The position numbers and the translations under genes are program-made. DNA of 64,000 nt from Blasia pusilla (Eukaryota): NCBI GenBank assembly GCA_050084515.1, contig CM114271.1, forward strand, positions 43,214,001 through 43,278,000, in the 5' to 3' direction. Numbering within the stretch: the stretch's first letter is position 1; every line of letters begins with the position of its first letter. Under the pieces are notes generated by a model. It saw only the letters and a program-made list of their open reading frames with translations. It searched no databases and was not told the DNA's origin. Of the stretch, positions 2,990 through 60,670 are shown one piece after another.

Positions 2990-4100
2990 ATTAAAGAACT
3001 CAACCATGGGGTTGAACTTTGAAAAACTTAAATGGACAAATTTTAACTTTCCCTAGGTGAGACACCGCCCCATGGGTCTCACTCATTGTAGAGGAAGAAG
3101 CTTCTCTTGTCTCCCCCTCATCATTTGTAAATGGCTCCGTCCATGATGCACAACGTGGATCATAGGAGAATATGTAGGCCTCATTATTTGGTACAAACCA
3201 AGATGAAAACTCCAAGTAGTTATCCATTGGTGATCCCTCCAAATGGTGAAACATAGCGTTCCATGATATGAACGTATGTACAAGTTGAACTCTTGAGAGC
3301 TCCTCATCCTCTCGAAGTTGCACCGACATCAAAACTCCATGATCAGTTGTAAAACTCCATGATCCCTGTAGTTTTCAAGAACCTATGGGATCCTCTACCC
3401 TGGTTGTCCGTCTCGTACGCCTATGGGTTAGGACCACTGAATGCCCTGAGTGATGTAGTAGGATATTCTTCCTACAAAGTCTCTTCTCCATGTGATGATG
3501 ATAAAGAGGGAGTTCGAGGTGGTCCCTCATGAGGAGACCCTTGATACCTCACGCCACTCAATGGAAACTCTCGGGCACTACTCTCAAGACCTTGACTCTC
3601 TAAACCTCGAAAGGACACCATGGCGGCACTTGTGCACCTTCTATATGATCACTCTTAACCTCAAAAGTTAAGTTTTAATGACTAGGAAACTATCCATATG
3701 GCACTCAAACCTCCATTCTCACTCCAAGACTTACACAATGCCCCAAGGTGCAGTGTGGTGCGGTAATACTCTAAGCACATGTATCCTATACTCAACATAA
3801 GACTCAACTATTACTCTTAACATCCCAAAAAACTCTATGGACCCTACTTTCATACATTAAGATGCTCACAACGTCACTACATAACCAAAAACCACAACGA
3901 AAATCCAACACTTGGAAATCCACACAAGTGGAAGGTAAGAGATTAAGATGGGTAATCTAAAACATAATGTTGATGTTGATTCTGAAAAAATTCCAATTGA
4001 CCCCAAATTTCTCATGAAACCAATCTCCTCTATTTTTAAATTAGTCATACTCCTAGATGCTGACTCAACTTAATCCTTCTCCATGATACGATGAAGTAAT
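2990..4100 (-). pseudogene. Degenerate gag and leader fragment of the DNMT-PHD retroelement family
   Basis: ORF 3000-3332 (MFHHLEGSPMDNYLEFS..YDPRCASWTEPF) aligns to 43567-43836 (MFQHLEGAPMDDYHEFS..YDPHYVSWTEPF). DNA similarity continues into the leader (ATGGGTAATCT.. at 3948 vs ATGGGTAACTT.. at 44497). Confidence 0.8.
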
Positions 4101-5799: not shown

Positions 5800-6730
5800 C
5801 TGCTATTATATAGTAGCGGTGCTTGTGGAGCTTTGACGGAGTGACGATCAATGAGCATGTGGAGACAACTTGGAGTGAGATTTTTGCACAAGGTCAAGAT
5901 TTCTCAAAGGATCTTGAGGTATCAAGGAGTGCTAAATTTTAACCCTAGGAAACTACACCCATTGTATGCAAATTTTTGAAGGAGAGCGTGAGGATGTTGG
6001 ATCCCTTTGGAGGGACCAACAAAGGTTTGGTTGTCTTCTTAAAGGTAGGCCTTTTCCTCTAGAAGTTTGAGTATGTGTAGCATGATGAGATTGCAAAATA
6101 GATCTTACTTTGACATATGTTCAAATTGAGGCAAAAGTTCCATGATCTCTTGCTTTAGTAATGTAGGGTTGGTAGAGTTCCTTATTGAAGGAGATCTTCC
6201 TATTGAGGGCAAAGAATCTAGAATAGATGGGCACCATTAATTTGTTGACTACAAGTTGGCCTTGTTAGGGTCAATCAAGTGGTAGTCAAGGGGGTGGCTT
6301 GGGAGACCCTAGGTCTAGATTATTTTGGCCAATAGTGCAAATCTTGCAACATCTGCAAGAGCACCACACCCACTTTGTTCCCTAACTTACATTAAGGAGA
6401 ATGTGTCGTTGTTGGATGACTCTTAGTCGCGAGTAGTGACTAGTGTGCATTAGGATTATGCATAGATTGGATAGACTCTAGTTTTGGACATGGCGAGCAT
6501 GGGGACCACGTACGCATATCCCGCGTCTTTGGTGGACAGATCGAATGTTGCATGAGGTTTTGAGAAGGTTAGGCAAGAGTGGAATGACCCTCCTAATTGT
6601 TGGTGGATTTCATATTGGATCTAGGGCATCAATCACAAGGAATGAGGCACAATGATTGACTCCCATTGAGTGTGGTGAATAGAGTTGGCATGTCAAGAGC
6701 ATCCCTCCTTAAATCCTCCTCACGCCTTGG
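5800..6730 (+). pseudogene. Degenerate C5-cytosine methyltransferase domain of an older copy of the retroelement family
   Basis: Manual translation gives RMLDPFGGT (about 5991, motif I), SWPC*GQSSGSQGGGLGDPRSRLFW (about 6254-6328, motif IV), YIKENV (about 6388-6405, motif VI) and HIPRLWWT (about 6515-6538, motif VIII). Each aligns to 40700-41280. Confidence 0.8.
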
Positions 6731-6929
6731 GGGTTTGAAGGAGGGATAAGTTTGAAACTTTTTTTATTTGTGATTTTCTTGCCATTGATATGCAATTTTT
6801 TTGCTGCTATGCTACGAGTGTTGTCTCCATTTTAATTTTAATTTGCATGCAACTATCATATGAATATCAAGAGTTATAAGACTCAAAGTTTATGAGTCAA
6901 TAAAATTGCACTTTGCAACTATATTGTGG

Positions 6930-7880
6930 TTGATACTTGCAAGAGGAGTGAAGGAGTAGCATATACATTCCTTGATTGAGTGCTGAGTCAAAATGATGCA
7001 CTAGCAATAGTGTTGACAGACCAAGGCATCGAGTTTTGTGAGAAGTTTTAGGCTTGTGTGATCAAATATTGATTGACCACTACACAACATTACAAGATCA
7101 TTCTAAGGTGAATGGTCTAGCCGAGCATGTTGTCCACAAGATGAAGAGGGGTTTGGGCAAGTATGGCTTATAGAGAGTTCGCCTAGCAGGTTGGGACCTA
7201 CAATTCTTATGGTATCTTCCTTCTACATGAATAGAAGGCAGATATCCTTGACATCTTATTCACATTTACTTTTTGCTCTATGGATGAGAGTCGGATGTAC
7301 CTACGACCAATTTTCATGATGCTATCGAGATACAAAACCTTGATGACCTTCATGTGTGGGTATGAGCATGTTCCAAAAGAGTAGAGACATTTTCAAGAGT
7401 CATGCCCATAGCATTTCAAAACTTGGAGATTATACGACATTATGACACCTTGAGGTATGCGATTATTTGGGAAGGAGGATATTGATCGACGATCCCGAGG
7501 TTCTATCAAAGGGACTATATTTACTTGCAGCAGACAATGCCAACAACTTTAGATGTGAAAATCAGGCACACCATTTTGAGGGTGTGCCTTAATTTCTATC
7601 ATTCTCTGGTTAGATGGGCAAGCATATGTTGATATGGTTTGTAATTGGAAGGACCATGAGTAGAATTGCAAATCATGTCACCTTTCTAGTATTTATGGTA
7701 TAATTGATTTGAGCTTGGAATTGGCACCTACAAGCTTATGGTGTATGTTATGTGGATCTGCTAGCCATGCAACCACAATGCTAGTTTGTGATGGATGTTT
7801 GATAGGGTGGCACATGACATGTTTGATTCCACCTCTCACTAGAGTTCCTGAAGGATGATGGATGTGCCCTAGCTAGATGT
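6930..7880 (+). pseudogene. Degenerate integrase + PHD finger of the same older copy
   Basis: Reads VLTDQGIEFCE.., DYIYLQQTMPTTLDV.. and CMLCGSASHATTMLVCDGC..GWHMTCLIPPLTRVPEG*WMCP, matching 36774-37700. Many stops. Confidence 0.85.
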
Positions 7881-7899
7881 ATATGGGATAGATAGTCAT

Positions 7900-9350
7900 A
7901 AACTTAAAGATTCCTTTTTGAATGAAGCTAGACAAGTTCTCTTAACTTTCTCCTCTTTAATTATGTTTGGTTAGGCTTGATTCCAATCGTCTTTGATGGA
8001 AGCCCACTTAAAGGTATTTTTTAGAGGCACTATGTTCAATGGGGGTATTCTTGTGAAGGTTTGGGCCCGTATTTGCTCTTGATGCAGTAAAGGGATTGGC
8101 TCAAGGATGCTTGCCCCTTCATTTTGCCTTTCTATATTGCACCATTTACTTTTACTACAACAATGCAGTTCTATTTGGGCCTCTGCTCACTACATGCATG
8201 TGGTTGGTTTGACATATTGTGAGTGGCATCAAAGCCTGAATTTTTTGGTGTGTATTTGCCATGTGTCCCAAGGTTGCACACGTGTCCACAGACCTATCCA
8301 TGTCGGAAAACTTAAGTCCATTCTATGGACAGACATGTCCGTGCAGGCTCCAGTATGCGGGGCCCGCACCCAAGCTGGCCCGCACCCGTTACATGATCCG
8401 TAGCCCGACCTCGGGTGGGCTTAGTGCAAGCCTCAAGCCTGCCTTGCGGGCCCTGGGTGCGGGCTCAAGGCCCGCAAAAATTGGTCTGCTGGACCAAGAT
8501 TTGGTCTAGCAGACCAATTTTAGGCTCAAGACCCTAAAGCGAGCCTTGAGCCCGCATGTAGGCCCTCAAGCCCATGCCTGCCCGTGCCATGTCTCCCTCA
8601 AGCCCGCGTCTGCATGTTTGGAGCCCACACCTGCCTGTCTAGAGCCTGCGCCCAATTAGCCTTGAGCCCGCACCTGCCCGCCCGGAGCCCACACGTGCCC
8701 GCCCAGAGCCCGCGGCCAATTAGCCTTGAGCCCGCACCTGCCTTCCTGGAGCCCACACGTGCCTTGAGTCTGTGCGTGTTTGCCTCGAGCCCGCACCTGC
8801 CCGCCTAGAGCCCTTGCCTGCCTTGAGCCTGCGCGTGTTCGCCTCGAGCCCGCACATGCCCGCCCAGAGCCCCCGCCTACCTGCCCTACCCCGCGCCTAA
8901 CGAGCCTTGAGCCCGCGCCTGCCGACCCTAGCCCTAGCATGCCGACCCTGAGTTCGCCCTATGGGCCATGCAACAGGTGCGAGCTCGGTCAACCCGAGTC
9001 TATGTGGCGGGCTCTAAGGCGGGCTCGGGTGCGGGCCGGGCATGTTTGAGAATATGTTTCGACATGTCCGTCCCATGGACAGACTTGTTCGTTTCCGTGC
9101 AATCTTGATGATTCTATCCACTTGGGGATGAGCCGATAAGAGGATTACCACTTACAACATTTTGTGGTTTTGTATTGCTTACAAGAGTGGATTCTATGTG
9201 AAGAAAGAGCAAGTGCGAGCATTGGAATTGTGTTTGCCAACACTATTCCATATGCGATACCCTCATTTGTGCTGATCTTTATATGAAGTGGGAGGTTGAG
9301 GTGGTGATGATTATATTATTATTATAGTCATGGCTATTGAGGGTGTTTCT
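7900..9350 (+). mobile_element. Highly degenerate CRE-like non-LTR retrotransposon remnant, interrupted by a MITE
   Basis: YCEWHQSLNF.. (about 8215) and CIAYKSGFYVKKE (about 9170) resemble YECCQSLDPLGVH and FNIARKSSFHMQER of the element at 57900-58900. Confidence 0.4.
8269..9107. mobile_element. hAT-type non-autonomous element (MITE) with an internal GC-rich GAGCCC(G/A)C repeat array
   Basis: TIRs are CAAGGTTGCAC (8269) and GTGCAATCTTG (ends 9107). Subterminal ATGGACAGAC/GACATGTCCG motifs are shared with 59113-59421. Flanks ATGTGTCC/ATGATTCT match at 5 of 8 positions. Confidence 0.7.
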
Positions 9351-33156: not shown

Positions 33157-33266
33157 TGTCGTGCGCATACACTTCACTACACAACCACACAGATGTGGTG
33201 TGGTTGTATGTGTCTTGGATTGGTGACATCAATGTATATTGTGTAGCGATGTATATGCACACGACA
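33157..33266. repeat. 110-bp unit bounded by inverted copies of the retroelement A-repeat terminus
   Basis: Starts TGTCGTGCGCATACACTTCACTACACAA and ends TTGTGTAGCGATGTATATGCACACGACA (24/28 inverted match). Both ends match the element end at 35822. Confidence 0.8.
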
Positions 33267-33539: not shown

Positions 33540-35091
33540 GATTGTAGAGGAACATTTTGCGGGTATGGGGAGATAATAGGATACAAGTGGTACCTCATCC
33601 TTCCCACCGAGCATGTGTAGTGCAACATGCCCATGAGTAGTTGGGGCATTTTGGAGTAAAGCGTACTTACAGCTTATTCCAGGTTCAATATTGATGGCGC
33701 GGTATGCATATTGGAGTACAGCACTTTGTGGCCAGATGTATGGTATGTGACCAAGTGTGAGCATCCTTCAATGCTCCCACTCCGTAGTTACATCCTTTGC
33801 CGATTATGGGTTTAGGTTATCGGTGGACTTTAGACTTTGCGGGACCTTTGCCATTGACGGGGCGTCACCACAGGTATGTTTTGGTCATGGTGGAGCATTT
33901 CTCCAAGTGGATAGAGTTGGTGGCACTATTAGACAAGGCAAGCGAGGAAACAACATATGCGTTTCTAGATCGTGTGCTTAGTCATTTTGGTGCAGTGGCG
34001 GAGGTGTTGACTAACTAGGGTACCGAGTTTAGGGGAGAGTTTGAGGCCTTGTGTGATTAGGCGCTAGTAGATCACCGCACCACATCTAGAGATCATCTTG
34101 AGGCAGATGGTTGGCGGGGAGAGTTGTCCATACAGTGAAGAGAGGATTGCGCAAGTAGCAAGTATGGCTTGCAGCGGGGACAGTTGAGGGAGTGGGACCT
34201 ATAGTTGCCATGGTTGGCTATGGGTTATCGCTTCAGCTGGCAGGCATCCTTGGCGTCATTTTCACCGTACTTTTTGCTCTTTGGGAGAGAGCCAAATTTA
34301 TCTCCATCTATTTGAGGTGACATGGCGGAGATGTTAGATCTTGATGATCCAAATATGTGGGTATAAGCATGTTCTCACAGGGCAGAGATTTTTCATAGAG
34401 TCATGCCCATGGCCTCTGAGAACTTAGCTATTGCTCAGCATAGGGATACATTAAGGTACGCGACCATTCGTGGAGGAGGTTATCTTCCAGGGATTAGGAG
34501 GTTTCATCTTGGAGATTACGTGTATTTATTGCAGGCCGTACCCGCGACGCTAGATGTCACTGCAGGGCGCATAATCCTACATGTGCGCGAGGTGTTACCG
34601 ACCGGAGTGCTCATGTTGGAGGGACGGGATGGTATGGTTTGGAAGGATCATGTGCGCAACAGTGCACCATGTCACCTTTCAAACGTGGACGGGAGAGTGG
34701 ATCCGAGCTTAGCAATGGTATCTACACGCTGGAGGTGTATGTTGTGTGGATCTACGAGGGATGCAGCCACCATGTTGGTATGTGATGGTTGTTCTCGAGG
34801 GTGGCATATGTCATGTCTGATCCCCCCTCTTGATGTAGTTCCCACGGGACGATGGATATGTCCAAGATGTATATAGGGTAGTAGATCATGTTAGAGAGAT
34901 GTGATATCTGCTATCTGGAGTTGGGGGGATCCAACTACTAGTTTAGGGGGCGGTTGTGTATCTCGATGTATATGTGTGAGTTGATTTTTTGTACTTGTGT
35001 GGATCTACCCGTATGTTGGGGAAAATTAGTATTGTGTGGTGTGGATGTGACCAACGATATATATTGTGTAGCGATATGTATGCGCATGACA
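33540..35091 (+). mobile_element. Truncated older copy of the retroelement: integrase + intact PHD finger + A-type terminus
   Basis: PIMGLGYRWTLDFAGPLP..VEHFSKWIELVAL (33797-34018) and ORF 34403-34876 ending CMLCGS..MLVCDGCSRGWHMSCLIPPLDVVPTGRWICPRC. Then TAGGGGGCG (about 34944) and a terminus ...GTGTAGCGATATGTATGCGCATGACA at 35091. Confidence 0.88.
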
Positions 35092-35821
35092 TTTAAGAGA
35101 GGAATTTTTTTAAATTTTACTCTTAAATTAAAAAAAAATTGAAGCAAGCACAAAATCACAAGATGATAAGAAAAATAAAGTAATTTGCTCTTGCCACAAT
35201 ACAAAGAGACCGAATAAGAGAGATTTTTGTCTTAGATGCACCTTAGTTACATAATGGTTATTGAGATAACCTACATTTCTACAAGCTCCCTAAAACTTAC
35301 TTTTTAAAGGGAGTTGGATTGGGCCCTTGGAGAACTTATTCTAATTTTTCCTCTAGATTGTTTGCTAAAAGTAGAACCCTTCTACCATATTGTGTATCTA
35401 AGGTAGAGAAGATCTCCTTTTCCTAAAATATTCTATTATTCTCTTAGGGTATGAGAATCCTCTTCTAGTTGAGACTACAACTATCCTTCTAATTAAATTT
35501 TCTTTCCTTTGTAGCATAAATCAATTGAGGCTCCAATATTCTATGATGGACATTCATTTTCAAGTCTCTTAGAGACGCTTTTGTCATGGTAGATGCGACG
35601 TAGGGCAAGATAGTATTTAGGCCTTAGAGGGTTCTTGTAATTCCCTATTTTGAGAGGTAATATGTGACTTGCTCGTAGGAGATAGTGTACGAGTGTAGGT
35701 CACCCTTCCTTTATGAGGAGTGGCAACCTTGGATTAGTTGACCTTCCCATCTTTTGTGTGGAGCTACTTGAGCCTATATGGTCAAGGGTTAGTTGGTAGT
35801 TCACAGGTAGTCGGTCTTATG

Positions 35822-35949
35822 TGTCGTGCGCATACACATCGCTACACAACATACATCGCTGTCACCGAACACACACACAAACACGCATGATCCCATGCTA
35901 ACTCATGGCATCCAAACAACGAGACAAGAAGAACCAAAATATCTCCAAT
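35822..35949. repeat. Split direct repeat A, terminal copy (128 bp)
   Basis: Matches 36466-36593 with 1 mismatch seen (GAACC/GAACA). Confidence 0.95.
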
Positions 35950-36463
35950 TAAAGTAAGATCCAATCTCTCTCTCCACCATCTCACACCATAGCTCTCAAA
36001 GGTGTGCACTCTCTCTCATGTCAAACCAAACCCACTCTCCTAATGAGAGGCTTGGGTTACACTCACAAGGCAAGGTACCATAGCTCCGCCGCCTCATGCC
36101 AAGAGGTTCAACAAAGAGAGAATGAGCTCTCAAGCTCTCTCTCCTTGAGGTATACCCCTCTCCTCTCCCAAGCTCTCTCCATGGTAACCTATTCTCCCAA
36201 GTCATCTCCTTGGCTCTTGACCTGATGTCGGAGGTCAAGGGCCACTTACCAAAAATAGTAAGTCGATCATATACTCAAAATGGTACTTACCTAAAATAGC
36301 AAGTTCCTCAATATGGCTCCAAATGAGCCGAAACGAAGGGGAAACCTGCTATCTCAGGTTTCCAAGGGCCTCAACAGGTCATCCTCGACCTATTGGGCGT
36401 GTCCTCCACTACTCATGAAGGCGCTCTATTAGATCCCACCGATCTATCCTAAAAGACGTGACA
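35950..36463. repeat. Split direct repeat B, internal copy (514 bp)
   Basis: Matches 45773-46286 with about 5 transition mismatches by eye. Confidence 0.95.
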
Positions 36464-36465
36464 GT

Positions 36466-36593
36466 TGTCGTGCGCATACACATCGCTACACAACATACAT
36501 CGCTGTCACCGAACACACACACAAACACGCATGATCCCATGCTAACTCATGGCATCCAAACAACGAGACAAGAAGAACAAAAATATCTCCAAT
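36466..36593. repeat. Split direct repeat A, internal copy (128 bp)
   Basis: Separated from the end of B (..GTGACA, 36463) by GT. On the element strand it is preceded by PPT-like AGGGGGGCG (36594-36602). Confidence 0.95.
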
Positions 36594-36773
36594 CGCCCCC
36601 CTAGCTGGTGGTTAGGTCCCTCTAACTCCAGATAGCCATCTATCCCTACCTACCATGACATACATCTCTCGGACGCTAAGAGCAAGAAGGCCGGGTGCTC
36701 ATGTGGCCCCGTCATTAGTCGCCTCCTTGTCATCCATGTCATAGACACAAGTCGGAATGTAGAACTACCTTCT

Positions 36774-38040
36774 CTATGTACATCTGGGACACATCCATCG
36801 TCCCTGAGGAACCCTAGTGAGAGGTGGCGTCAAACATGCCTTATGCCATCCTCTCGAACACCCATCATAGACTAGCATCGTGGCCGCACCACGGGCAGAA
36901 CCACACAACATATAACGCAAGCCTGCAGGAACTACTACTAAGCTCGGATCTACTGTACCATCAATGTTAGGAAAGTGACATGGCGCACAATTACGCACAT
37001 GGTCCTTCCATACCATACCATCGCGTCCCTCCAGCAAGAGAACACCCGATGGCAAAATGTCACGCATTCTCAAGATAGTGCGCCCTGCAGTCACATCCAA
37101 CGTCGTTGGTGCCGTCTGCTGCAAATAGACATAATCTCCCTGATGAAACCTCCGGATAGTTGGTCGATAACCACCACCTCGAATAGTCGCATACCACACG
37201 TATCTCGATGTTGTGCAATCGCCAAGTTCTCGAACGCCATGGGCATCACTTTCCGAAATAACTCAGCCCTCTGAGAACATGCTCGCACCCATACATTTGG
37301 GTCATCAAGGTTCAGCACCTCACCAGCATCTCGACGAATGGCCGCAGGTAAATATGGCTCTCGGCCATAAAGTAGCAAGTACAGTGAAAAAGACGCTAAG
37401 GATGCCTGCCTGCTGAATCTGTATCCCATCGCCAACCATGGCAATTGGAGGTCCCAATCTCCTAGGTGACCTCTCTGCAAGCCATACTTGCGTAAACCCC
37501 TCTTCACCGTCTGCACAACTCTCTCCGCTAATCCATCCGCCTCACGATGATCTCGCAAAGTCGTGCGGTGGTCGATCAGCGCCTGATCACACAAGGCCTG
37601 GAACTCACAGCGAAACTCGGTACCGTGGTCTGTCAACACCTCAGCTGGTGCGCCATAATGACTCAGCACTCTGTCAAGGAAGGCATAAGCTACTCCCTCA
37701 CTTGCTTTGTCAGGCAAAGCAACCAACTTGATCCACTTCGAGAAGTGCTCGACCATCACCAACACATAACGACTGTGACGCTCCGTCAAGGGCAAAGGTC
37801 TTGCAAAATCCAAACTCCATCTATACCCTAAGCCCATGATCGGTAATGGATGCAACTGTGGAGTCGGAGCATTGAACGATGCTCGGACCCGATCACACAC
37901 CATGCACTGGCAACAAATTCTTCGAACGTCGGTCTGCATGCCTCGCCACCAATATCTGAATCTGGAGCAAGCTATCGTCCGCTTCACCCCAAAGTGACCC
38001 AACTCCTCGTGGGCATCTTTGCACTAGTCGTGCTCTGCAA
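36774..38040 (-). pseudogene. Integrase (HHCC + DDE core) with C-terminal PHD finger, frameshifted
   Basis: AHEELGHFGVKRT..CMVC, RWSLDF..VEHFSKW, VLTDHGTEF, GLAERVVQTVK. PHD at about 36777-36914 reads YMLCGS..MLVYDGCSRGWHKACLTPPLTRVPQGRWMCPRC. Confidence 0.93.
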
Positions 38041-38359
38041 AGGATGCGGCACTCACGCGTACTCTGCCATCCTCCCAAACCCTCAAAACATGTGTCCCCT
38101 CCCAACGGAACGTCGGCCCCCATTTGTAGGATCCGATCCGCTCTCTAGCATCCATGGTGCTCGCAAGGCTACCAGTACGAAGGTACTCTAAGACTACTCC
38201 ATCATCATGAATATCTCGGCCACTTGTCGTGTCCTCACTGGCCTCGGGATCCAAAGACTCTCCACTAGACCTCGCCATCGAAGTCTCCACACTCTGGCTC
38301 TCCATAGCCAACATGCCTAAATAGGCTGACGCGTGCCATCCAAGCACCCCAAGCACCAA

Positions 38360-39750
38360 CTCCTCATCACTCTCTCCATGCCATCGAGCTCCAATCGCAT
38401 CTCGCTGACTCGGGCATGGGTTACGACTCAACCCATCGCATCCTGGTTGAGCGTTCAGTCTATGTACCACCTGAAAATCATACTCTGCAACAACAGAGCC
38501 CATCTCTTAAGCTTCCTGTAAGCTTGTCGGACTCCATCAACCGCCGGTGGTTGATGATCGATGATGATGGTAAAGGGGTTGCCGAATAAGTAACACCTGA
38601 AATGCGCGGCGGCCCACACCACGACCAAGCACTCACCCTCATACGAGCTGTATCGCCTCTCTGGCGTTGTTCGAGCGGCTAGCGTAAGCCACCACAAACT
38701 CTCTACCCTCATCATCATGCTGGGTGAGCACCGCTCCAAGCCCCAACATGCTCCAATCTGTGTGCAACTGGAAAGGACGCCCCCTGATCGGTCTCCTCAA
38801 GATGGGTGCGGACGTCAACCTTTCCTTGAGCAACTGAAATGCTCGCTCCTGCTCATCCCCCCAGTGCCACTCGTGATCCACCTTGGTGAGCAAGGTCAGC
38901 GGCTTCGCAATCGAACTGAATCCCTTGATGTATCGCCGATAGAAGTTCGCCAATCCCATGAATGCGCGAACACGGCTCACATCTGTAGGGCGTGGAATGC
39001 GTGAGATAGCCTCTACCTTTGTCTGTTGAACACCAAGGCCCCCTGGGTATATCGTATGATCCAAGTACTCAATCTGGTCGTAGAAGAACTTGCACTTGCC
39101 TGGATGTAGCTTCAGCCCATGTAATTGCAATCGTCGAAACACCTCCCCTAGATGTTGCTCATGCTCCTCAACCGTGGCGCTAAAGACTACGATGTCATCA
39201 ATATAACACCTAGCAAAATCCAGACCAGCCAAGATCCTATCCATGATCTCTGAAACTCATCCGAGCGTTCTTTAACCCAAATGGTATAAGAACCGCCATT
39301 GGTACAAACAATCCTTCCGTGAGGATCGATGCCCCAAAATGCCGTCTTCGCTGTCCTCCAATCGATAGGCGGTGATGGTATCTAGCTCATAAATCAATGA
39401 ATCAAGACCTTTGCGTGACCAATCACATCAAAGATCTCCTCGAGGGTGGGCATGGCATACCTATCGGACTTCATCTGCGCGATTGATAGGTCGGTAATCC
39501 CCACACATCCGCCTATCCGTCCAGTTGCCATGCACATCCTTCTTGGCGGGCATGACAGTGGCACATCCATACTCCCCATGCGACATCTCCACTAGTCCTA
39601 CTTTGACCAAGTCTTGGCTCCTACTCTGAATCAGAGCCCTCTCCATATCATCTTTGTACTGCCGCCGGAAGATCGGCATATCACTCGACAACTCAATGCG
39701 GATCCCGGTCCCTTCACCGTACCCAAATCCTCCATGCTAAACGCAGCGGC
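38360..39750 (-). pseudogene. Reverse transcriptase + RNase H (Ty3/Gypsy-like), frameshifted
   Basis: RRMCGDYRPIN, DRYAMPTLEEIFD, CYIDDIVVFS, LKLHPGKCKF. RNase H motifs LHTDWSMLGLGAVLTQ, YSSYEGECL, DHQP, DGLSR. Confidence 0.95.
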
Positions 39751-40122
39751 TCCTATAACTCTTGAGGAACGATGTATCGGCGCCGCTCTCCTCTGTCAAC
39801 TTAGGGCCCATATCGGCTCCCAAGTCTCCATCGTGACTACGGTAGGACTCTCGCGCGGGTATCGGTGGTTGCTATGGTGCAACCCGTCTCGAACAACAAC
39901 ACTCAACCGCTCTCCAGAGCCAGCGCAAACTCGATCTCATCCACGTGCAGTGCCCGAAACCACGCTCGATGCTGTGGCTATCATCTCCTTGCGTACCTTC
40001 AAAACATCCCAAGAAGTCCAAGGGTGTCTCTCCCGATCTCCCCTGGTGCGTAGATCTCCTCGGGTCTCACCCCCAGCCATTGCCTCCACCGTCTCGGCAG
40101 GCATGGGGCTCACCAACGCAAC

Positions 40123-40157
<35 letters not shown>

Positions 40158-40329
40158 TCTGGGCACGGGGATTGGTCGGGACGCCATGCTTCCATACCAA
40201 GGTTAGCACGGTTGATAATATCAGCCCAAGTGTTAATTACACGACCTGCCGCAAAATCTGGAGTTCTTAGACATTTGGGACAGAGGAAACGCGCTGTGAT
40301 CTGTCGCGATCTCATACGACGCTGCTCAG

Positions 40330-41300
40330 CCACTCCCAAGCTGAGGATCCATGTCAAGCAGTTCAGGTCCATCGCCTGACCCAAGACATGGCGTCGTGAT
40401 GCCTCGACATCGATGGTACCGCTGCCGTCACTCTGTGGGAAATCCCATCGCCGCTCTCTCTCGTCGGCGTTGGGCTCCACCAACCGCTGAACCTGGTCAT
40501 CCCAAACCAAGCCAAGACCGGCCTCCTTGTATGCATAGGAAGCGGAAAACTCACAACGTGGGCAAGGTGCCCGCGCGCCTGCCTACCCTGTTGACGATCG
40601 GCGGTGGTCGATCATCGTGCCTCATCGCCTTTGTGATCGGCGACTGGATCGAGAATGGAATCCACTAACAAAGGGAGGGGCGCTCCACTCTGCGGAGATA
40701 CGCCCTCCATAACACCGCATGGGGCACCAAGTTGGTTCACCATAGACGCGGGCGATGGGCTCTAGAACCTACACTCGCCGCATCCAAGAACACTGCTGGG
40801 CCGATCCAGGCACGCACCTGATGAGCACTCGTCACGACCCGTGACCTGGAGTCTCCTAAGATCGGCACATTCTCTAGAATGTAGGCTGGAGAATGAGATG
40901 GTGCTCTGCAAGAATCGCCGTAAGACCCTCAACATCTCCCAAAACAACCTGGACCGAGTGTCAGCCAACCCGCTGCCTTGTCCAGCACTCGATTGGCCTT
41001 GACATGGCCAACCGGCAATGACCAAATCAATGGTCCCTACCCGCTCTAAGTCTTGCGCCCCCAACAACAAAATATCCCTCGGTAGGGAACTCACGGTACC
41101 CTCAGATCGCGGAGGCCTTGCACAATAAGTCGGGAAAACGTAGGCGTAATTGCGCCACATGTCGTAGTGAGAGCGCCTCGCAACATCATCACTCTCCACA
41201 TACAATCTTCTTTGTACTCGCACTCCTTCTGCAAAATAAACAACTAACCCGGTGCTAATCCCTCCAAAGAGATCTAACACTCAAATACCCTCCTCCGGGT
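40330..41300 (-). pseudogene. DNMT3-like C5 DNA cytosine methyltransferase domain within pol
   Basis: Motif I VLDLFGGISTG; motif IV IDLVIAGWPCQ (PCQ at 40999-41007); motif VI AYILENV (ENV at 40866-40874, shifted frame); motif VIII GSRAHRPRLW*TN; motifs IX/X EPNADERER..FP..SRRHVLGQAMD. Confidence 0.92.
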
Positions 41301-41714
41301 ACACCACACAATGGGTGTAGTATCCAAGGGTGTCATCGTAGCACTCCCGCTACCTCGGGCTCCTCAGACCGTCACGCTCTGGGTGCAACGCCTCGCTCCA
41401 CGCGGATGCACGTCGTGCGATCGCCAATCGTTGAAGCTCCTCGGCCGAGCCCCACGGCACCTCTCCTCCACGGAATGATGCAGCTACCATAAAACTCCTC
41501 TCCATAGAAATGTCAGGAACGGGAGTATCCTCTGCATGGACATGTCCCTCAATCAAATCACTAGGCCAAGTGATGGCACTACTAAATGCTGCTAAGGTCG
41601 CCATCTCTCCTGGCCGTTGCTCGATCACTGCACATGTGAATCGAACGGGTAATGAGCTAAGGCGCCCATCACCTGACTGCCATCCTGGTCTTTAGGATCG
41701 ACTCCTCCCGATAA

Positions 41715-42100
41715 TCAGGAAAACCCCATCGGGTATAACATTGCTCCACCAACCAAGACGTCGTAGGACTCAGCATCAGTCACTATCGCCTTAGCGCGCA
41801 CCACGGACTCATCTCTAGGATGTCCCGGGCGAATCCTCACCACGACCTCCTGTCGGATGATATACTGTGTGGTACTCGCTCCACCCAAGGATGTCTGTAT
41901 CCGAAATGGACAACACTCCACATCGGCTCTCGTCAAGCCCAATCCTCTGAATGACGCTTTCCCCAACATCAAGGGTTGCGCTCCTGAATCCAACAAGACG
42001 CGCTGCGGACTAAAAGCTCTACCTCCAGGACTCACCAACTGGAAGACCTCTCCTCGGTTATCCAGCAACACAACACCAGGAGAAGCCATGGCACGCTCTA
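41715..42100 (-). pseudogene. Retropepsin-like aspartic protease domain
   Basis: RVLLDSGAQPLMLG (DSG catalytic motif) ... YDVLVGGAML. Confidence 0.85.
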
Positions 42101-42899
42101 TCGCGGGTCTAGCGGGCATCTCCGCCATCCTAGCGCCGCGAACTGCCATGAATCTGGCGTGGGCGGCCCGAGCATCCGCTCCAGGGCAGTCCATCACCTC
42201 CTCTGCAATCACCTCTGAACGTGATGCAGGAACTCCAACTCCGCGCTCACATAGTGAAGCGGCCAGCCGAAAAGCCTCGGCGGGCGTACCTCCCAACGTC
42301 ACAACATCGAAAGCAGAGAATAAAGGAGTGCGGTACACAACGGTGGCCGCCCCCAACAACGTGCTCGACACATGCCCCTCCCGAGCATCAACAATAGGAG
42401 TCGCCTTTTCGCTTCTCCCATCGCCCTCCATGCTTGCACACCAACAACATTACCAACTCTCCAGGAACTTTGATGAGGACCCATCGATGGGGTCCTCATC
42501 GCTTCGGACAACGTGAAAGATTGAGGAAGCCTAGTCTCTCTACTGGCTTCCCCTCGCTGTGGATCCAACTCTACGGCTGCTCCACGCGTCACAACTGCGG
42601 CGGCCTCCATCTGGGCAACCCCGCACATCCATCCAGGATCCTCGGATCTCTGGCTGCTCCATATGATGTCGATGCCACGGATCCGGCATCGGGTAACCTC
42701 AATGCCATAGCAAACAATCTGCTCTTGTAGTCATTTGTCGATCGGCGACCATCCCAGCCTCACGTCCGGCATCTCCCTCGGCGCGTCTAGGTGGTGGTAC
42801 TCTACCTCCTCCACGGGCAGCTCCACCACCCTATCGGGCAACTCCAGCTCCTCGTCCCCCAACGGGACCACCGAGCACGATCTCTAGGCCCACCGGACC

Positions 42900-44250
42900 G
42901 GCTACTCGCTCGAGTGCCCTCTCGGCCCTCGGTCCAGGCGTAACTCAGGATGTAAACTAAAACACTGGCGCGTGTATGACCATACCTCGACAATAGTCAC
43001 ACCGATAATCTCCTGGTGCAAAGACCATCTCCTCCTCCATGCCGAGGCACACGTCCATGACCCCGGCGAGTGCAATCGCGATGATGGGCTCCACCACATG
43101 ACCAACAAGTAATAGTAGGCGGCTGCTGGCGAGCCGCATATGAAGGCGCAGTCTCGGGCACGGCCTCTCGGTATCCTCCCGAGCTCGTGGTGCCCGATCG
43201 ACCTATCTCGAGTCACGTTCTTTGCACAAGTGGTGCAGACAATCGTGACTGCTCTCGCCCAGAACCCATGGTGGCTACGCTCTCCTCCGCCATGTTGCGC
43301 TCAATGTTCTCGGCGGTCCTAAAAACATCTCTCAACGTAGGGGAGGTGTTCATAAGAAGCACCCCCTCCCGCACCCGTGTCCGCAGGGTCCGGTCCAGCA
43401 TCCCATACCATGACTGGATAGCCTGAGCCTCTATCACCCCCTAAGTGACGTTGATCAACCGGCGCAAGCCAGTGTAAGCCTCACGCAAACTCTCACCCGA
43501 GCGCCTCTGGAAGTCGTGGATGCTCCGCAACTTCTCCGTCCGTACCCCCTAGTAGCTCGCCTCAACTCAAAGAAAGAACTCAACCACGAGGGGTTGAACA
43601 CTGGGACGAACCCGACTGGATAGTGCAACTGCTCCCGTGCGAGTGACCCCTCCTAAAACGTCACTAGTGGAAGAGGCAGTAGCCTCTCCTGACTCCTCCT
43701 CCTCATCTGGGAACGGCTCCGTCCATGACACATAGTGTGGGTCATAGTAGAGCCTCCACGCCTCGATCTCACATGCATATCTCTGAGAGAACTCATGGTA
43801 ATCGTCCATGGGCGCCCCCTCTAAATGCTGGAACATACTCTTCCACGCTGTAAACGGGTTGAACTCTCTAGAGTTCCTGGCCTGCTGGGAGTCGCACCAA
43901 CTCCTAAACTCTGCTATAAAATCGTGCCTACTGCACCTGAAAACCTACGCGGTACTCTACCCCGGTCGTCCATCTCGTACGCCCAACTGGTAGGACCACT
44001 CACAATGTGTGGCGATGTGCTCACAAACTCCTCTACACCCTCCCCCTCATCTGACGATGACACAGAAGGAGGTCGAGGTGGTCCCTCACGTGGAGACCCT
44101 CGAAACCTCGCGCCACTCTGCGTAAAACCTCTAGAGCTACTCTCGGGTTCACCACCTCGCCTCTCAAAGTCCCGAACAGACTCCGTGATGACCCTCGTGC
44201 CCCTCTCACCCGATCACTCTGAACCTCATGAGGAATCCCTCAATCACTCA
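42900..44250 (-). pseudogene. Gag-like region with zinc-knuckle remnants
   Basis: Fragments MFQHLEGAPMDDY.. and AIQSWYGMLDRTLRTRVREG; C-terminal CWSCGGAHHRDC and CDYC..YGH knuckle-like motifs. Lies upstream of the protease. Confidence 0.7.
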
Positions 44251-45772
44251 TCCCAAACATGCGGCACTCGATCTACACTCTCTCTCCCCGAGACGTGTAA
44301 CGTGCGGCAACACGCGGCGTGGTGCGGCAAATCGACCAGGCTATCATCTCATCGATAACCTACCCTCAACTCCGGACATCCCACACAGGTCTATGTCCCC
44401 TAAACCACATACATAAATGATGCTCTCAGCATCCACACACCCAATATCCCCAAATAAATCCCCTTAATCCCTCACGTGCGAGGGTAAAGGACCAGAATGG
44501 GTAACTTGAACACATGTCGATGTCGCTCCTCAGCAACTGCAAATCTCGACCCCAACTCGATCGTGGAGATAACTCCTCCAATCAGCAAGTCATACTCCTC
44601 CCGTACTGATGGTGCTCAAAACTCCTCGATAGACAGTGCGGTCCCAGCGGAACGGTGCGGCGTTGCGCGCATTTTAAGGCGATTCTGAACGGCACGGCCC
44701 TCGATGGTGGGATGCGGCACTCGGCGGCACACCCTCCTCAATCAATAATAATCCCACACTCTGCTCCACAATGACGGTGCGGCTCCGCAATTGAGATGGT
44801 GCGGTGCGGCCACGAGCGGCACGGCGCGGCAATCGGCGGCGCGTTGCGGCTACGGGCGTCACGGCACGATACTCGATCGTCGTCGAGCGGCTACCAATCA
44901 CAACATAGCAGCATGAAATCAAAACTCAAACACCATAACCGGAGGTCATCTGCCTTCACTGGTTGATGAAGAAACTGCGATGACGGTGGCGGCCAAAACA
45001 AAGTACGTGGTGGCGACGCAAGTCAAGGAATCCACAAACGTCATGGAAGACCCTCCACTCCGTAATGGCGGCAATGGCACCCAAAGGGTGGACAATGGAC
45101 GGTGGACCCTTGACAGTGACGGTTGACCGCTGATGGTGACGGCCGACCGATGACGGTGACGGTTGACCGTTGACGGTGACTATGATGGCGACGGCCGCCG
45201 CCGGTGTGGCGGCTGATTTAGGGTTTGCACGATTTAACCCTAAAAATCGCCTAGCAATGGCAGCTTTACAAGATTGCCCATAACTTTTTGCTCGCAACTC
45301 CAAATTGTGCACTGTTTGTTGCACACCGTGCACAGCTTCACAATCTACGCTACCATCAAAAAATATTTAGAATCAAACATTTCAGTAAAAACTGACGGGG
45401 ACTGTCGTAAAGCCCAATGTCTCTTTCTCCTACACAAAATTCGGCAGCGCTCCCGCGCTGATTTCTCCCAACGAAAATGTAACATCTGTAAAAATACAAA
45501 TCAGCAAGCTACATGGTGCTCCCGAGAGCACCAGCATGGGGCAACCCGCCCCCATACTCAATCCCTATCAGAAATTGGGCAGCGCTTCCGCACGTCACTC
45601 TTCCACACGAAAAATCGGCAAATGCAAAGAGTAATGAAAGCAGCCCTTGCTCCGGTGAGCACTCCCATGAGCCGCTGAACGGGGAACACGGTCCCCAACC
45701 TGCAAAAACAGCGAGTGACCAGCGAGCTCCCCCATGAAGCTCTCTCACTCTCTCATTCTCTCACTCTCTTTG

Positions 45773-46286
45773 TAAAGTAAGATCCAATCTCTCTCTCCAC
45801 CATCTCACACCATAGCTCTCAAAGGTGTGCACTCTCTCTCATGTCAAACCAAACCCACTCTCCTAATGAGAGGCTTGGGTTACACTCACAAGGCAAGGTA
45901 CCATAGCTCCGCCGCCTCATACCAAGAGGTTCAACAAAGAGAGAATGAGCTCTCAAGCTCTCTCTCCTTGAGGTATACCCCTCTCCTCTCCCAAGCTCTC
46001 TCCATGGTAACCTATTCTCCCAAGTCATCTCCTTGGCTCTTGACCTGATGTCGGAGGTCAAGGGCCACTTACCAAAAATAGTAAGTCGATCATATACTCA
46101 AAATGGTACTTACCTAAAATAGTAAGTTCCTCAATATGGCTCCAAATGAGCCGAAACGAAGGGGAAACCTGCTATCTCAGGTTTCCAAGGGCCTCAACAG
46201 GTCACCCTCGACCTACTGGGCGTGTCCTCCACTACTCATGAAGACGCTCTATTAGATCCCACCGATCTATCCTAAAAGACGTGACA
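45773..46286. repeat. Split direct repeat B, terminal copy (514 bp; element 5' end)
   Basis: Matches 35950-36463, ends ..AAGACGTGACA and is followed by the TSD TATG. Confidence 0.95.
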
Positions 46287-46759
46287 TATGAGAGGACCAC
46301 ATATATAATGGTTATGGAGTTAGTATCTTGTGTACTCTATGTCATTGATGACCTACTAGGAGGAAGTCCATGGAGGTGCCCAAGGGGGTATACCTTATGA
46401 AGCTCATTCAGAGCTCATCTTCCTTCGATCAGACCCATATTGGGATCTGTGATACAGTGCAGAGTGCATGTATTGAGTTTGGATTTTCTCTTGAAGAATG
46501 GGCTAGGATTGATCAGAGATCACAGACATTGACAATATATTGCAAAATTTCTCCTACTATTATCATAGTGTGTATTATTGAGTGGATGTTTGGAAGAAGC
46601 ATAGCTACTTGCACATTTCACATTCCATATCAACTTTATATTGGGGTTGTCGAGTCATTCATGTGTAGATGTGTTAGGATTCATAGTTAGATGGATCTTA
46701 CACAAGTGTGTATGATAGTCAATATATATTGGCAACGATGTCTTTTTTTACGACTCTTT

Positions 46760-59421: not shown

Positions 59422-60598
59422 ACCCAAACTCTTTGGAGTTAACACCTCTAGTATGCTTTTCGACTAGATTAACCGAGACACTTTCCTTTCATTGTCTGTA
59501 ATAATAGGGCATGTCTCAAGTCTATTGGAACGAGGTTTTGGCAACATCAAGGAACTAGTATGTAAGAGCAAGTGGGATAGGAAGTAGGGATCCTCCTAGC
59601 TTTCCTCATCAAGATGAAACTTGAACATGAGATTCAACTTCCTCCCAAGATCTATCATTGATTAGTACTCTCATCTCCCTCGGATTCAATTCACTACTAT
59701 TTGGTGAACAAATATTTCTCTTGACTCTCTTTATGTGAGGGTATATGTGATTTGCCCTAGAAGTTTCCTTTTCCTTCCTTTGTTTCTCCCAATGGGAGAA
59801 TCTTTGCCAAGGTTCCCGACATCATTTCTAGAGAAGTGAAAAATTTGAGAGATTTTTGCATGGTTATATACACTCAAGATAGACATATTAGACGACCTTA
59901 CTTACTTTTTAAATAAATTTCAGCATATATTTTATTGGTTTGAGAACTGATTTTATCTACATTTAATTCAATAAACAACATTGCATGATTTGTGCTTCAT
60001 ATTGCATTTCCATTTTTACACTTCTTCCTTCTTGCTTCCTTGGTACAAATGGCTTTTAAAAATCTCTTCTCGTTATCTAGATGCAATGTATCTAACATTG
60101 AAAGAGGTGGAAAAAAGTAATGGTATTCTTGTAATAGTATAAAAAAAGTTTAATGGTGCACCAAAAACTATTGCTTGATTTTTTCATAAAATTAAATTTT
60201 TTTGAAGGAAATTAAAAGAGACACATAATAAAAGAAGGAAGTCTTTGTGACAAAAGTTCATTTTCACAACTAATTTTTGAGCCTTGTGAAGAAGTCTTCA
60301 TAAAATGAAATTCACACTACTCATTTTAGTTTTGAAATGATGTCCGTAGAACATTTTACATAATGTAAAATGATGAGTATTTAACCCATGATACCAATAA
60401 TAAAATTATTTTAATATTTTAATACACATTTCACTAGTGTAAATAGAAAAAAACATGCTTAGTAATATGGGAAGGTCCTTAGGGGACTAATGTCTTATAA
60501 TCCACATTTGAGATTATGTTCCATGGAAGAAATGAAGAACCTCAATAAATATGCATGATGGAAAACCCATCCGAAAAACAAACGAGGGAAATTTGCAG

Positions 60599-60670
60599 AG
60601 GCCCCACCGAGATCTGAACTCGGCCTCTTGGATTCAAAGTCCAATGTTGTAACCACTAGACTATGGGGCC
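60599..60670 (-). tRNA. tRNA-Gln(UUG) or tRNA-Gln pseudogene
   Basis: GGCCCCATAGTCTAGTGGTTACAACATTGGACTTTGAATCCAAGAGGCCGAGTTCAGATCTCGGTGGGGCCT. Acceptor, anticodon (TTG) and T stems pair, but the D stem is weak (GTCT/CAAC). A T5 tract lies about 20 nt downstream. Confidence 0.75.

Follow-up and report, generated by a model that had tools for sequence, protein, structure and literature searches.

LTR retroelements are thought to integrate from linear cDNA, with the primer site and the polypurine tract (PPT) determining where the molecule ends. The retroelement at 35822-46286 of the window (the whole 64,000-nucleotide stretch of Blasia pusilla contig CM114271.1 that was analyzed, positions 43,214,001 to 43,278,000) raises the question of how an element with a Gypsy-type DDE integrase comes to carry the split direct repeats of PAT and Ngaro elements. 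The element belongs to the DNMT3-bearing kind of Ty3/Gypsy-type retroelement and has decayed; its split-repeat layout is real and typical of a very abundant family.

Read on the minus strand, the element is organized as B(514)-coding-PPT-A(128)-ac-B(514)-A(128). The 5' copy of repeat B (514 nt, 45773..46286, from repeat comparison and direct reading) begins with TGTCAC and is adjoined by a primer site for the minus strand, CAAAGAGAGTGAGAG (45758..45772), which was assigned by its position and is of a non-TGG type. Behind the coding region, a directly read PPT (36594..36604, a G-run and then CG) touches the internal repeat A (128 nt, 36466..36593, with CGACA at its end), followed by the dinucleotide 'ac' (36464..36465), the 3' copy of B (514 nt, 35950..36463) and the terminal A (128 nt, 35822..35949, with CA at its end), the repeats being delimited by repeat comparison and the dinucleotide by direct reading. 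The latter separates GACA at the end of A from TGTC at the start of B and forms an integrase-type junction. Terminal A and B are in exact contact at 35949/35950, a junction covered in 4/4 runs, and the first base of the terminal A is the base just after the PPT in the internal copy. The termini of the element (TGTCAC at the start, CGACA at the end) form a TGTC…GACA pair of the TG..CA type, and a target site duplication (TSD), TATG, was read directly on the 5' side (46287..46290) and again on the 3' side (35818..35821), in the focal copy alone (n = 1). The two B copies are identical at 509 of 514 positions, with every one of the 5 mismatches a transition, and the two A copies at 127 of 128; the divergence of the two pairs is nearly the same (0.97% and 0.78%), which places the origin of both at the insertion. 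An earlier sequence-only reading had claimed the B..A-B-A layout, the repeat sizes, the exact abutment of A and B, the TG..CA bounds and the 4-bp TSD, all of which were recovered on direct re-reading. Its remark that no TGG-type primer site follows the 5' repeat also holds, as no TGG motif, by which a tRNA primer site was judged, adjoins the 5' B, where CAAAGAGAG... is found. The tRNA-independent priming suggested in that reading is a possibility, for which self-priming through CT-rich/GA-rich complementarity is a weak candidate, since the complementarity tested was non-specific. The focal copy is the one full-length copy read (n = 1), and 5' ends were read from it only.

The coding region, likewise on the minus strand, has the domain order gag-PR-DNMT3-RT-RNaseH-HHCC/DD35E integrase-PHD, with Pfam matches (PHD, H2C2 with rve, RNaseH, RVT_1, and DNA_methylase) in 5 of 10 ORFs. 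The gag-like region (42970..43923) was located by tblastn with residues 25-344 of the Marchantia protein P0004, and a relative, P0009, has a weak Retrotrans_gag match under the Pfam cut-off. A protease-like region containing a DSG motif (41721..42419) was recognized from the ORF translation and the alignment to P0004 and P0145, and the Pfam scan gave no match there. Next come a DNMT3-like C5 cytosine methyltransferase domain split over three frames (40280..41691; PF00145, E 3.2e-9), for which the best solved relatives are DNMT3A (E 8.8e-6 and 1.7e-8), the reverse transcriptase with RNase H (38081..39775; RVT_1, RT_RNaseH, RT_RNaseH_2, and the P0145 alignment), the integrase with an HHCC zinc finger and DDE core (37091..38023; PF17921 and PF00665), and the integrase C-terminus with a PHD finger (36774..37262; PF00628, E 2.2e-8), a region with 78-83% identity to liverwort and metagenome proteins. 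The Gypsy-type DDE integrase that had been recognized earlier is thus borne out, with an intact triad (D72, D132, and E167 in ORF numbering, spaced D-60-D-35-E, i.e., DD35E), and so is the lack of a tyrosine recombinase despite the PAT/Ngaro-style layout (0 of 20 ORFs scanned). Alignment to the proteins of relatives revealed at least five frame changes, and the focal copy is defective; in the intact relatives P0153, P0155, and P0157, RT, RNaseH, DNMT, integrase, and PHD are all present.

The pol order PR-RT-RNaseH-integrase (from the Pfam order and the alignment to Marchantia P0004 and P0145), the HHCC finger combined with a DD35E integrase, the PPT, and the TG..CA termini with a TSD in the 4-6 bp range (seen in one copy only) are those of Ty3/Gypsy. 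Canonical members (Metaviridae) differ in having two equal LTRs, whereas here the 5' end carries B only and the 3' end A-ac-B-A, and in having a tRNA-complementary primer site beside the 5' repeat, where this element shows no adjacent TGG motif; moreover, DNMT3 and PHD domains are added, and the integrase-type ends lie inside the repeat defined by the PPT and the primer. The split direct repeats follow the A1-ORFs-B1-A2-B2 topology of PAT-like, Ngaro, and DIRS elements, from which the focal element is set apart by an HHCC-finger DD35E integrase in place of a tyrosine recombinase, the 4-bp TATG TSD, the TG..CA ends, and the PPT at the repeat edge. SymbioDIRS-Dnmt3, a tyrosine-recombinase retroelement, bears DNMT3 too. 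TOC1 of Chlamydomonas, the subject of Day et al. 1988, reportedly has a partial repeat at one end and a whole one at the other, again in a green-lineage host; it has been classed as a nonautonomous DIRS retrotransposon and differs in encoding no Gypsy-type integrase.

A DNMT3-type C5 methyltransferase within a Gypsy pol, together with DIRS-like repeats (A-coding-B-A-B), characterizes the Gypsy-DNMT3 kind, and both are present in the focal element. The sequence-only reading had overlooked the methyltransferase and had taken the element for an undescribed non-canonical lineage, a claim that has to be given up: by domain content and repeat description the element fits the published Gypsy-DNMT3 kind, and the layout has been in print since 2018, when the legend of Fig. 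4c in de Mendoza et al. (PMC5890265) described KnitGypsy-Dnmt3 of Klebsormidium as having DIRS-like repeats with Gypsy domains. Besides this combination of a DIRS-retrotransposon repeat structure with Gypsy-like domains, the streptophyte KnitGypsy-Dnmt3/Gypsy-DNMT3 elements (PMC5890265; preprint 10.64898/2026.05.21.726589) share with the focal element a Gypsy-type pol and a DNMT3-like methyltransferase inside the polyprotein. They differ in their Klebsormidium host, as the nearest named relatives of the focal element among the matches listed are proteins of the liverworts Marchantia and Calypogeia, with no Klebsormidium sequences among them, and in the PHD finger, a word absent from the PMC5890265 text. 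A TSD, TG..CA ends, a PPT abutting A, and A-only ends were not found described in the available part of that paper. Troyka, which had also been suggested for comparison, is a Gypsy-related lineage with unusual termini, found in animal hosts; its 3-bp TSDs and CG..CG ends, as given in the abstract of PMC12440569, rule out identity with an element that has a 4-bp TSD and TG..CA ends.

The proposal that the layout characterizes the family, and is no peculiarity of one copy, proved right, both in junction depths and at an independent locus. In run X1, 123,347 contig pieces aligned to the 1.5-kb repeat stretch, and DNA contigs under two species labels, as well as RNA reads, contained the junctions from B to the leader, from B to A, and across A-ac-B at very high depth. 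The B-to-leader junction (loose ends at 35950) was seen in 45 X1 contigs and 47 RNA reads, while the B/A junction at 35949 had a depth of 215,840 in X1, 16,288 in X2, and 446 in X6 (another species label) and was crossed by 20 RNA reads. In X1 its depth was about half that of B (445,706 at 35974), such ratios being rough, as contig word depths were summed and reads of A fit two places (17,218 X1 pieces). The independent metagenome locus, L002, reads PPT-A'(107)-gt-B'(463)-A'-flank, i.e., the 3' half of the layout, with 'gt' in the same position as the focal 'ac', and belongs to a subfamily with a B unrelated to that of the focal element. Across subfamilies the final 40 nt of A are 92% conserved, whereas their B parts are unalignable. 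The boundary of GGGGGGCG with A at the PPT is found in the focal copy, L001, L002, and L003, and the PPT adjoins A rather than B in 5/5 copies read.

The 3' ends are of two kinds. GACA at the end of A is followed by unrelated sequence in four of the five readable copies, and three of the five finish after the first A, L003 being ambiguous among them, since behind its A come 2 nt and then seven bases that match the start of B'. An older, 5'-truncated copy of a related subfamily neighbors the focal element on the plus strand (33551..35091, INT-PHD-PPT-A-like, from sequence reading), with INT-PHD at 33551-34873, the PPT near 34945-34952, and an A-like stretch at 34953-35091. It had been put forward (as 33540-35091) in support of a family trait, which stands for the direct passage from PPT to A and fails for A-B-A, as B-A is absent after the A-like stretch and unrelated AT-rich DNA comes directly next. 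A-only 3' ends are equally explicable by recombination between the two A copies.

If repeats had been collapsed or mis-joined in the A-B-A block, the layout would be an assembly artefact; no read or contig among the matches listed spans the whole block, the bin at the flank junction of the focal insertion (35755-35805) has depth 0 in 4/4 runs, and run X1 perhaps derives from the window's own source. Every block junction is, however, covered in several runs, another species label included, the same block occurs in an independently assembled metagenome contig, and the TSD is clean, which makes such an artefact scarcely credible. Another idea is that of an ordinary element with an LTR of B+A, of which the focal copy alone was rearranged, its 5' LTR losing A and a stray A being gained before the 3' LTR, e.g., by recombination between copies. 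Although the one readable full-length copy is otherwise decayed, in DNA contigs and RNA the common form is B followed by the leader, with A missing behind the 5' B, an equal PPT-A-nn-B-A block occurs in L002, whose subfamily has an unrelated B, the published Klebsormidium elements share the repeat structure (PMC5890265), and the PPT touches A, not B, throughout the copies read; a lone rearrangement is thereby largely refuted and highly improbable.

How the ends are made is a separate matter, on which the RNA reads bear. Along B, RNA depth rose from 46-58 in its first ~100 nt to 150-179 in most of the remainder, against 11-24, about a tenth of B, over the terminal A; the step inside B is visible in both RNA and DNA. 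By RNA depth, the first ~110 nt of the 5' B are U3-like and the remainder R-U5-like, and the profile fits a start site within B with few transcripts reaching the terminal A, the start site being read from the depth step only, as the RNA reads showed no pile-up of starts or ends. Most of these reads (763 of 1022) are 90-95% alike to the focal copy and thus derive from other copies. The 20 reads over the B/A junction indicate that some transcripts reach the terminal A, as required by PAT/Ngaro-style replication with a DDE enzyme, in which RNA would begin within the 5' B and stop within the terminal A, the missing ends would be rebuilt by template switching on the internal A-nn-B bridge, a mechanism put forward for tyrosine-recombinase elements, and a Gypsy-type integrase would carry out the insertion. 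The identical topology, the naming of the repeats as DIRS-like in PMC5890265, and the absence of a tRNA-type primer site after B also favor this scheme, to which the low RNA depth over the terminal A, the lack of a tyrosine recombinase, and the presence of a TSD are opposed. Furthermore, the repeat edges match the PPT and the leader start to the base in several copies, which is explained by LTR-type reverse transcription and not required by the bridge model. We therefore regard the rebuilding of ends from split repeats, as the sequence-only reading had envisaged it, as unlikely; the positions of the PPT and the primer site argue instead for LTR-like reverse transcription with an LTR of A-nn-B.

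The preferred reading, to which we give an even chance, is LTR-like reverse transcription of A-nn-B in a DNMT3-bearing Gypsy-type element, combined with opening of a two-LTR circle by the DDE integrase. The repeat made by reverse transcription would be A-nn-B, with its left edge at the base after the PPT and its right edge at the base before the primer site behind the 5' B; transcripts would start ~100-150 nt into B, and U3 would comprise A and the beginning of B. The ends used by the integrase, TGTC...GACA, would then sit within this repeat, at the boundary of A, nn, and B, and inserted ends at a CA-nn-TG site inside A-nn-B are difficult to account for unless the intermediate is circular or tandem. 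The two ends of a full-length linear cDNA, A-nn-B...A-nn-B, may be joined, giving a two-LTR circle with a precise B/A junction, which the DDE integrase would open at one of two internal GACA-nn-TGTC sites and insert with a 4-bp duplication, and the integrated B...A-nn-B-A form would be exactly the product of such an opening. If the other site, or a one-LTR circle, were opened, copies with a 3' end of PPT-A-flank would result, and copies of this form exist among those read; flank-B-A-nn-B-leader and solo B-A with a TSD would be the expected sister forms. No circular DNA turned up in the data analyzed. As the 3' copy of R is kept only in the B...A-nn-B-A form, we propose that only that form is re-copied.

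Retroviral circle cleavage takes place at the LTR-LTR junction itself and is at most an accessory pathway. The cleavage of such junctions is described in print for PFV and HIV-1, in which the DDE integrase cuts a CA..TG junction in circular DNA to give integration-competent ends (PMC1180852, PMC1905944), as would happen here; in the focal element, in contrast, each LTR would contain the cut site internally, and integration would pass obligatorily through the circle. More tentatively, the streptophyte Gypsy-DNMT3 lineage might integrate obligatorily from a two-LTR circle, with the integrase cutting CA-nn-TG inside the LTR and all competent copies being circular permutations of a normal provirus, a generalization that we consider possible rather than probable.

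In the family of the focal element, the primer site and the PPT would delimit one repeat (A-nn-B), yet the inserted ends fall inside it. The layout had been mentioned once before, in the Klebsormidium figure legend, with no mechanism found in the literature searched; the window shows this kind of element to be very abundant and transcribed in a land plant and adds details by which the mechanism can be tested (the TSD, the att-like junction, where the PPT lies, and the two types of 3' end). Since standard LTR finders expect two equal LTRs, such families will be mis-annotated by them. If true, an obligatory circle route would mean that 'circle junction' integration, long abandoned for retroviruses, exists in a natural, fixed form, and that the PAT/Ngaro layout was reached by convergence.

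Read on the minus strand, the focal copy (35822-46286) runs B – about 9.2 kb of internal sequence – A – 'ac' – B – A, with the two copies of repeat B (514 nt; 45773-46286 and 35950-36463) identical at 509 of 514 positions, all five differences being transitions, and those of repeat A (128 nt; 36466-36593 and 35822-35949) at 127 of 128. The terminal A directly adjoins the second B with no gap, the element starts with TGTCAC and ends with CGACA, and the target-site duplication (TSD) TATG was read directly on both flanks (35818-35821 and 46287-46290). A G-rich polypurine tract (PPT; 36594-36604, minus strand) ending in CG adjoins the first base of the internal A, and the leader begins with CAAAGAGAGTGAGAG directly after the 5' B, where no TGG-type primer site was found. 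The repeats and their B..A-B-A order, the TG..CA ends with a 4-bp TSD and the missing primer site had all been described in the sequence-only reading; its observation of the layout is confirmed, and its interpretation is partly supported. Three to four 20-nt tandem units (45098-45177) lie in the long leader (~1.5 kb) between the 5' B and gag. The insertion flank at 35602-35754 is repetitive (summed depth ~3.5e3-4e3 in the DNA run X1 vs. 11 at 35500-35550), so the focal copy was inserted in another repeat; its flanks have no second copy inside the window.

Pfam families were found in five of the first ten minus-strand ORFs (PHD finger; Integrase_H2C2 with rve; RT_RNaseH; RVT_1; C-5 DNA_methylase, PF00145), another ten yielded no relevant family, and none of the 20 matched a tyrosine recombinase. 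D72, D132 and E167 are retained in the integrase ORF with the spacing D-60-D-35-E, together with an HHCC motif. Between the protease and the RT lies a DNMT3-like cytosine methyltransferase (40280-41691, minus strand) that was absent from the earlier account; DNMT3A proteins are the best solved relatives of this piece as well as of a full Marchantia homologue, and it is above all by the methyltransferase that the lineage can be identified. Compared with the Marchantia protein P0004, the gag-PR-DNMT part changes frame five times or more (-2, -1, -3, -2, -3, -1), and the copy is therefore dead, despite repeats that are ~99% alike. In intact relatives from the protein collection (P0153, 1814 aa; P0155, 1999 aa; P0157, 2201 aa), RT, RNaseH, DNMT, H2C2, rve and PHD are joined in one protein.

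The nearest named relatives of the ORFs are liverwort proteins. The methylase ORF had 23 matches, among them nine named as Marchantia polymorpha, three as Calypogeia fissa and one as Sphagnum, while the ORF with the integrase C-terminus and PHD finger had 251 at E ≤ 1e-5; among the 120 matches listed for the latter, identity reached 83%, and it was 78-81% for the top matches with a name (Marchantia, Calypogeia). Only generic integrase and methylase clusters were retrieved from the Protein Atlas, and scans of viral contigs with the PHD-containing ORF and with a 24-sequence alignment gave no relative. The RT precedes the DNMT in P0153 and P0157, and the lineage may therefore contain two domain orders. 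Further diverged family pieces are found at 5943-7888 (plus strand) and 3009-3639 (minus strand); in one diverged piece, DNMT is followed by INT-PHD within ~240 nt with no RT between, the piece ends after PHD, and a gag fragment lies on the opposite strand. A GC-rich array of ~59-64-nt tandem repeats (8592-8884) stands downstream of a third, cut-off family copy.

A Gypsy element of Klebsormidium nitens with a Dnmt3 in pol, KnitGypsy-Dnmt3, is described in PMC5890265 (de Mendoza et al. 2018), and a 2026 preprint (10.64898/2026.05.21.726589) contains the phrase 'streptophytes (Gypsy-DNMT3)'. The legend of its Fig. 4c gives the Klebsormidium element the repeat structure of a DIRS retrotransposon together with Gypsy-like domains. 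The central point of the sequence-only reading is thus already in print, within the portions of PMC5890265 consulted in this legend only and without a mechanism. Across the searched text of the literature on Gypsy split direct repeats, KnitGypsy, Gypsy-DNMT3, Marchantia transposable elements and DNMT3 in streptophytes, no other treatment of the layout was found. The suggested comparison with Troyka did not fit and this identity was dropped, since Troyka elements, as characterized in the consulted part of PMC12440569, have 3-bp TSDs and CG..CG ends, whereas the focal copy has a 4-bp TSD and TG..CA ends.

In order to place the layout within the family, the stretch 35500-37000 was compared at ≥ 90% likeness with the DNA contigs of X1 and X2 (one species label) and X6 (another label) and with the RNA reads of X22. 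This is an enormous family, with 123,347 pieces from X1 on this stretch and summed word depths of 1e5-1e6 over A and B vs. ~4e3 in the flank. Loose ends at 35950 mark recurrences of the B-to-leader junction (45 contigs of X1; 47 RNA reads), and the B|A junction at 35949 recurs as well (depth 215,840 in X1, 16,288 in X2 and 446 in X6; 20 RNA reads). By this rough measure, the latter reaches in X1 about half of the B depth at 35974 (445,706), the ratio expected of copies with a single B-to-leader and a single B-to-A junction each. Each of the four runs also covered the A-ac-B junction (row 36462), and a B|A junction shorter by 1 nt made up 13-15% of the DNA depth and 14 of the 20 RNA reads. Over the first ~110 nt of B (36350-36463) the summed X1 depth is 1e3-1e4 vs. 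2e5-8e5 over the rest, so that family members differ far more in this U3-like part. The flank bin 35755-35805 had depth 0 in all four runs and no single piece in them spanned the whole A-B-A block; the focal locus itself is thus without independent confirmation, and X1 may be its source.

Six loci (L001-L006) were obtained from metagenome contigs. In L002, PHD is followed by GGGGGGCG, A' (107 nt, ending in GCGCACGACA), gt, B' (463 nt, starting with TGTCATG), a second A' (98% identical) and the flank; this is the same A-nn-B-A block (nn, the dinucleotide) in another subfamily, whose B' cannot be aligned with the focal B, while A is 92% conserved over its final 40 nt. Together with the junctions recurring in the runs, this locus bears out the claim of a family trait. 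L001 reads PPT, A' and unrelated DNA, and L003 reads PPT, A' and 2 nt plus TGTCATG before unrelated DNA, the rest of B' being absent within 10 kb in both; no terminal structure could be read in L004-L006, all of them old or distant. The older copy in the window reads PPT, an A-like end and AT-rich DNA: the PPT followed by an A-type end had been seen correctly, but A-B-A is not shown there, as no B-like or leader-like sequence was found beside the older A-type ends (local alignment scores within the shuffle range). Of the five 3' ends that could be read, two have the A-nn-B-A form and three have A alone, with one of the latter ambiguous. A ends in GACA followed by unrelated sequence in four of the five, and in L003 the seven bases after a dinucleotide equal the start of B'.

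GACA and TGTC are separated by 'ac' at 36464-36465 and by 'gt' at L002:2499-2500, so that the two 10-mers are reverse complements of each other. In element coordinates, two independent 5'-truncated copies (33551-33587 and L002:953-959) both start within ~15-50 nt of one position (~8183-8231), a short way upstream of the integrase zinc finger, each with different sequence before it; a recurrent break point or a subgenomic form may lie behind this. A 110-nt piece at 33157-33266 has two A-type termini face to face and no obvious TSD: the final 29 nt of A, in reverse complement, are separated by a ~36-nt spacer from the final 45 nt of A, after which comes 'ac'. Telomere-like CCCTAA runs with a fixed 8-nt spacer (26-32-nt units; L002:355-520) lie ~450 nt upstream of the truncated copy.

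RNA evidence came solely from X22, of which ~6 in 100 of the run were read. It gave 1022 reads, 763 of them at only 90-95% likeness and thus derived from copies other than the focal one; first mates lay ~10:1 on the plus strand, meaning minus-strand, sense RNA if the library is of the usual stranded type. Within B, depth was 46-58 in the initial ~100 nt and 150-179 in most of the remainder; it was 77-115 over the internal A and 11-24 over the terminal A, and no pile of read begins or ends was detected over 35500-37000. A leader start complementary to a CT-rich stretch of B was considered for Tf1-like self-priming, but was dropped as non-specific: the region is of low complexity, and in the predicted fold this stretch pairs with another GA-rich stretch in B. 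A Gln gene at 60598-60670, the only one for a tRNA within the window, has no bearing on the priming at the leader.

Two sets of landmarks disagree in these elements, as the PPT and leader start delimit A-nn-B, and the inserted ends TGTC...GACA sit inside it as GACA-nn-TGTC. The terminal A starts at the exact PPT-defined base and the B before it stops at the exact primer-defined base, the signature of a full-length linear cDNA closed end to end (a two-LTR circle junction). We infer, at roughly even probability, that the LTR is A-nn-B and that a two-LTR circle is opened by the DDE integrase at CA-nn-TG. RNA would start inside the 5' B and end in the 3' B, ordinary LTR-type reverse transcription would give A-nn-B at both cDNA ends, and the full-length linear cDNA would close into a two-LTR circle. 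Opening at one of the two internal CA-nn-TG sites would yield B–internal–A-nn-B–A with a short TSD; cleavage of circle junctions by integrase has retroviral precedents, as reported in the consulted parts of PMC1180852 and PMC1905944. Opening at the other site, or of a one-LTR circle, would leave PPT–A|flank ends, and such ends were seen, although A-only 3' ends may instead be A×A deletions. Of these products, the B–internal–A-nn-B–A form alone would keep the 3' R and hence alone be copyable again.

The main rival, a PAT-style rebuilding of the ends from RNA reaching the terminal A, we regard as clearly less probable. A one-off rearrangement in the focal copy could also produce its layout, but is unlikely given the recurrent junctions in the runs and the same block in L002, and an assembly artefact, likewise unlikely, is disfavoured by the junction coverage in the runs and the metagenome contigs. 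The focal element belongs to a known but barely described kind, here with a liverwort-like land plant as host, and the mechanistic question raised by its split-repeat layout is testable.
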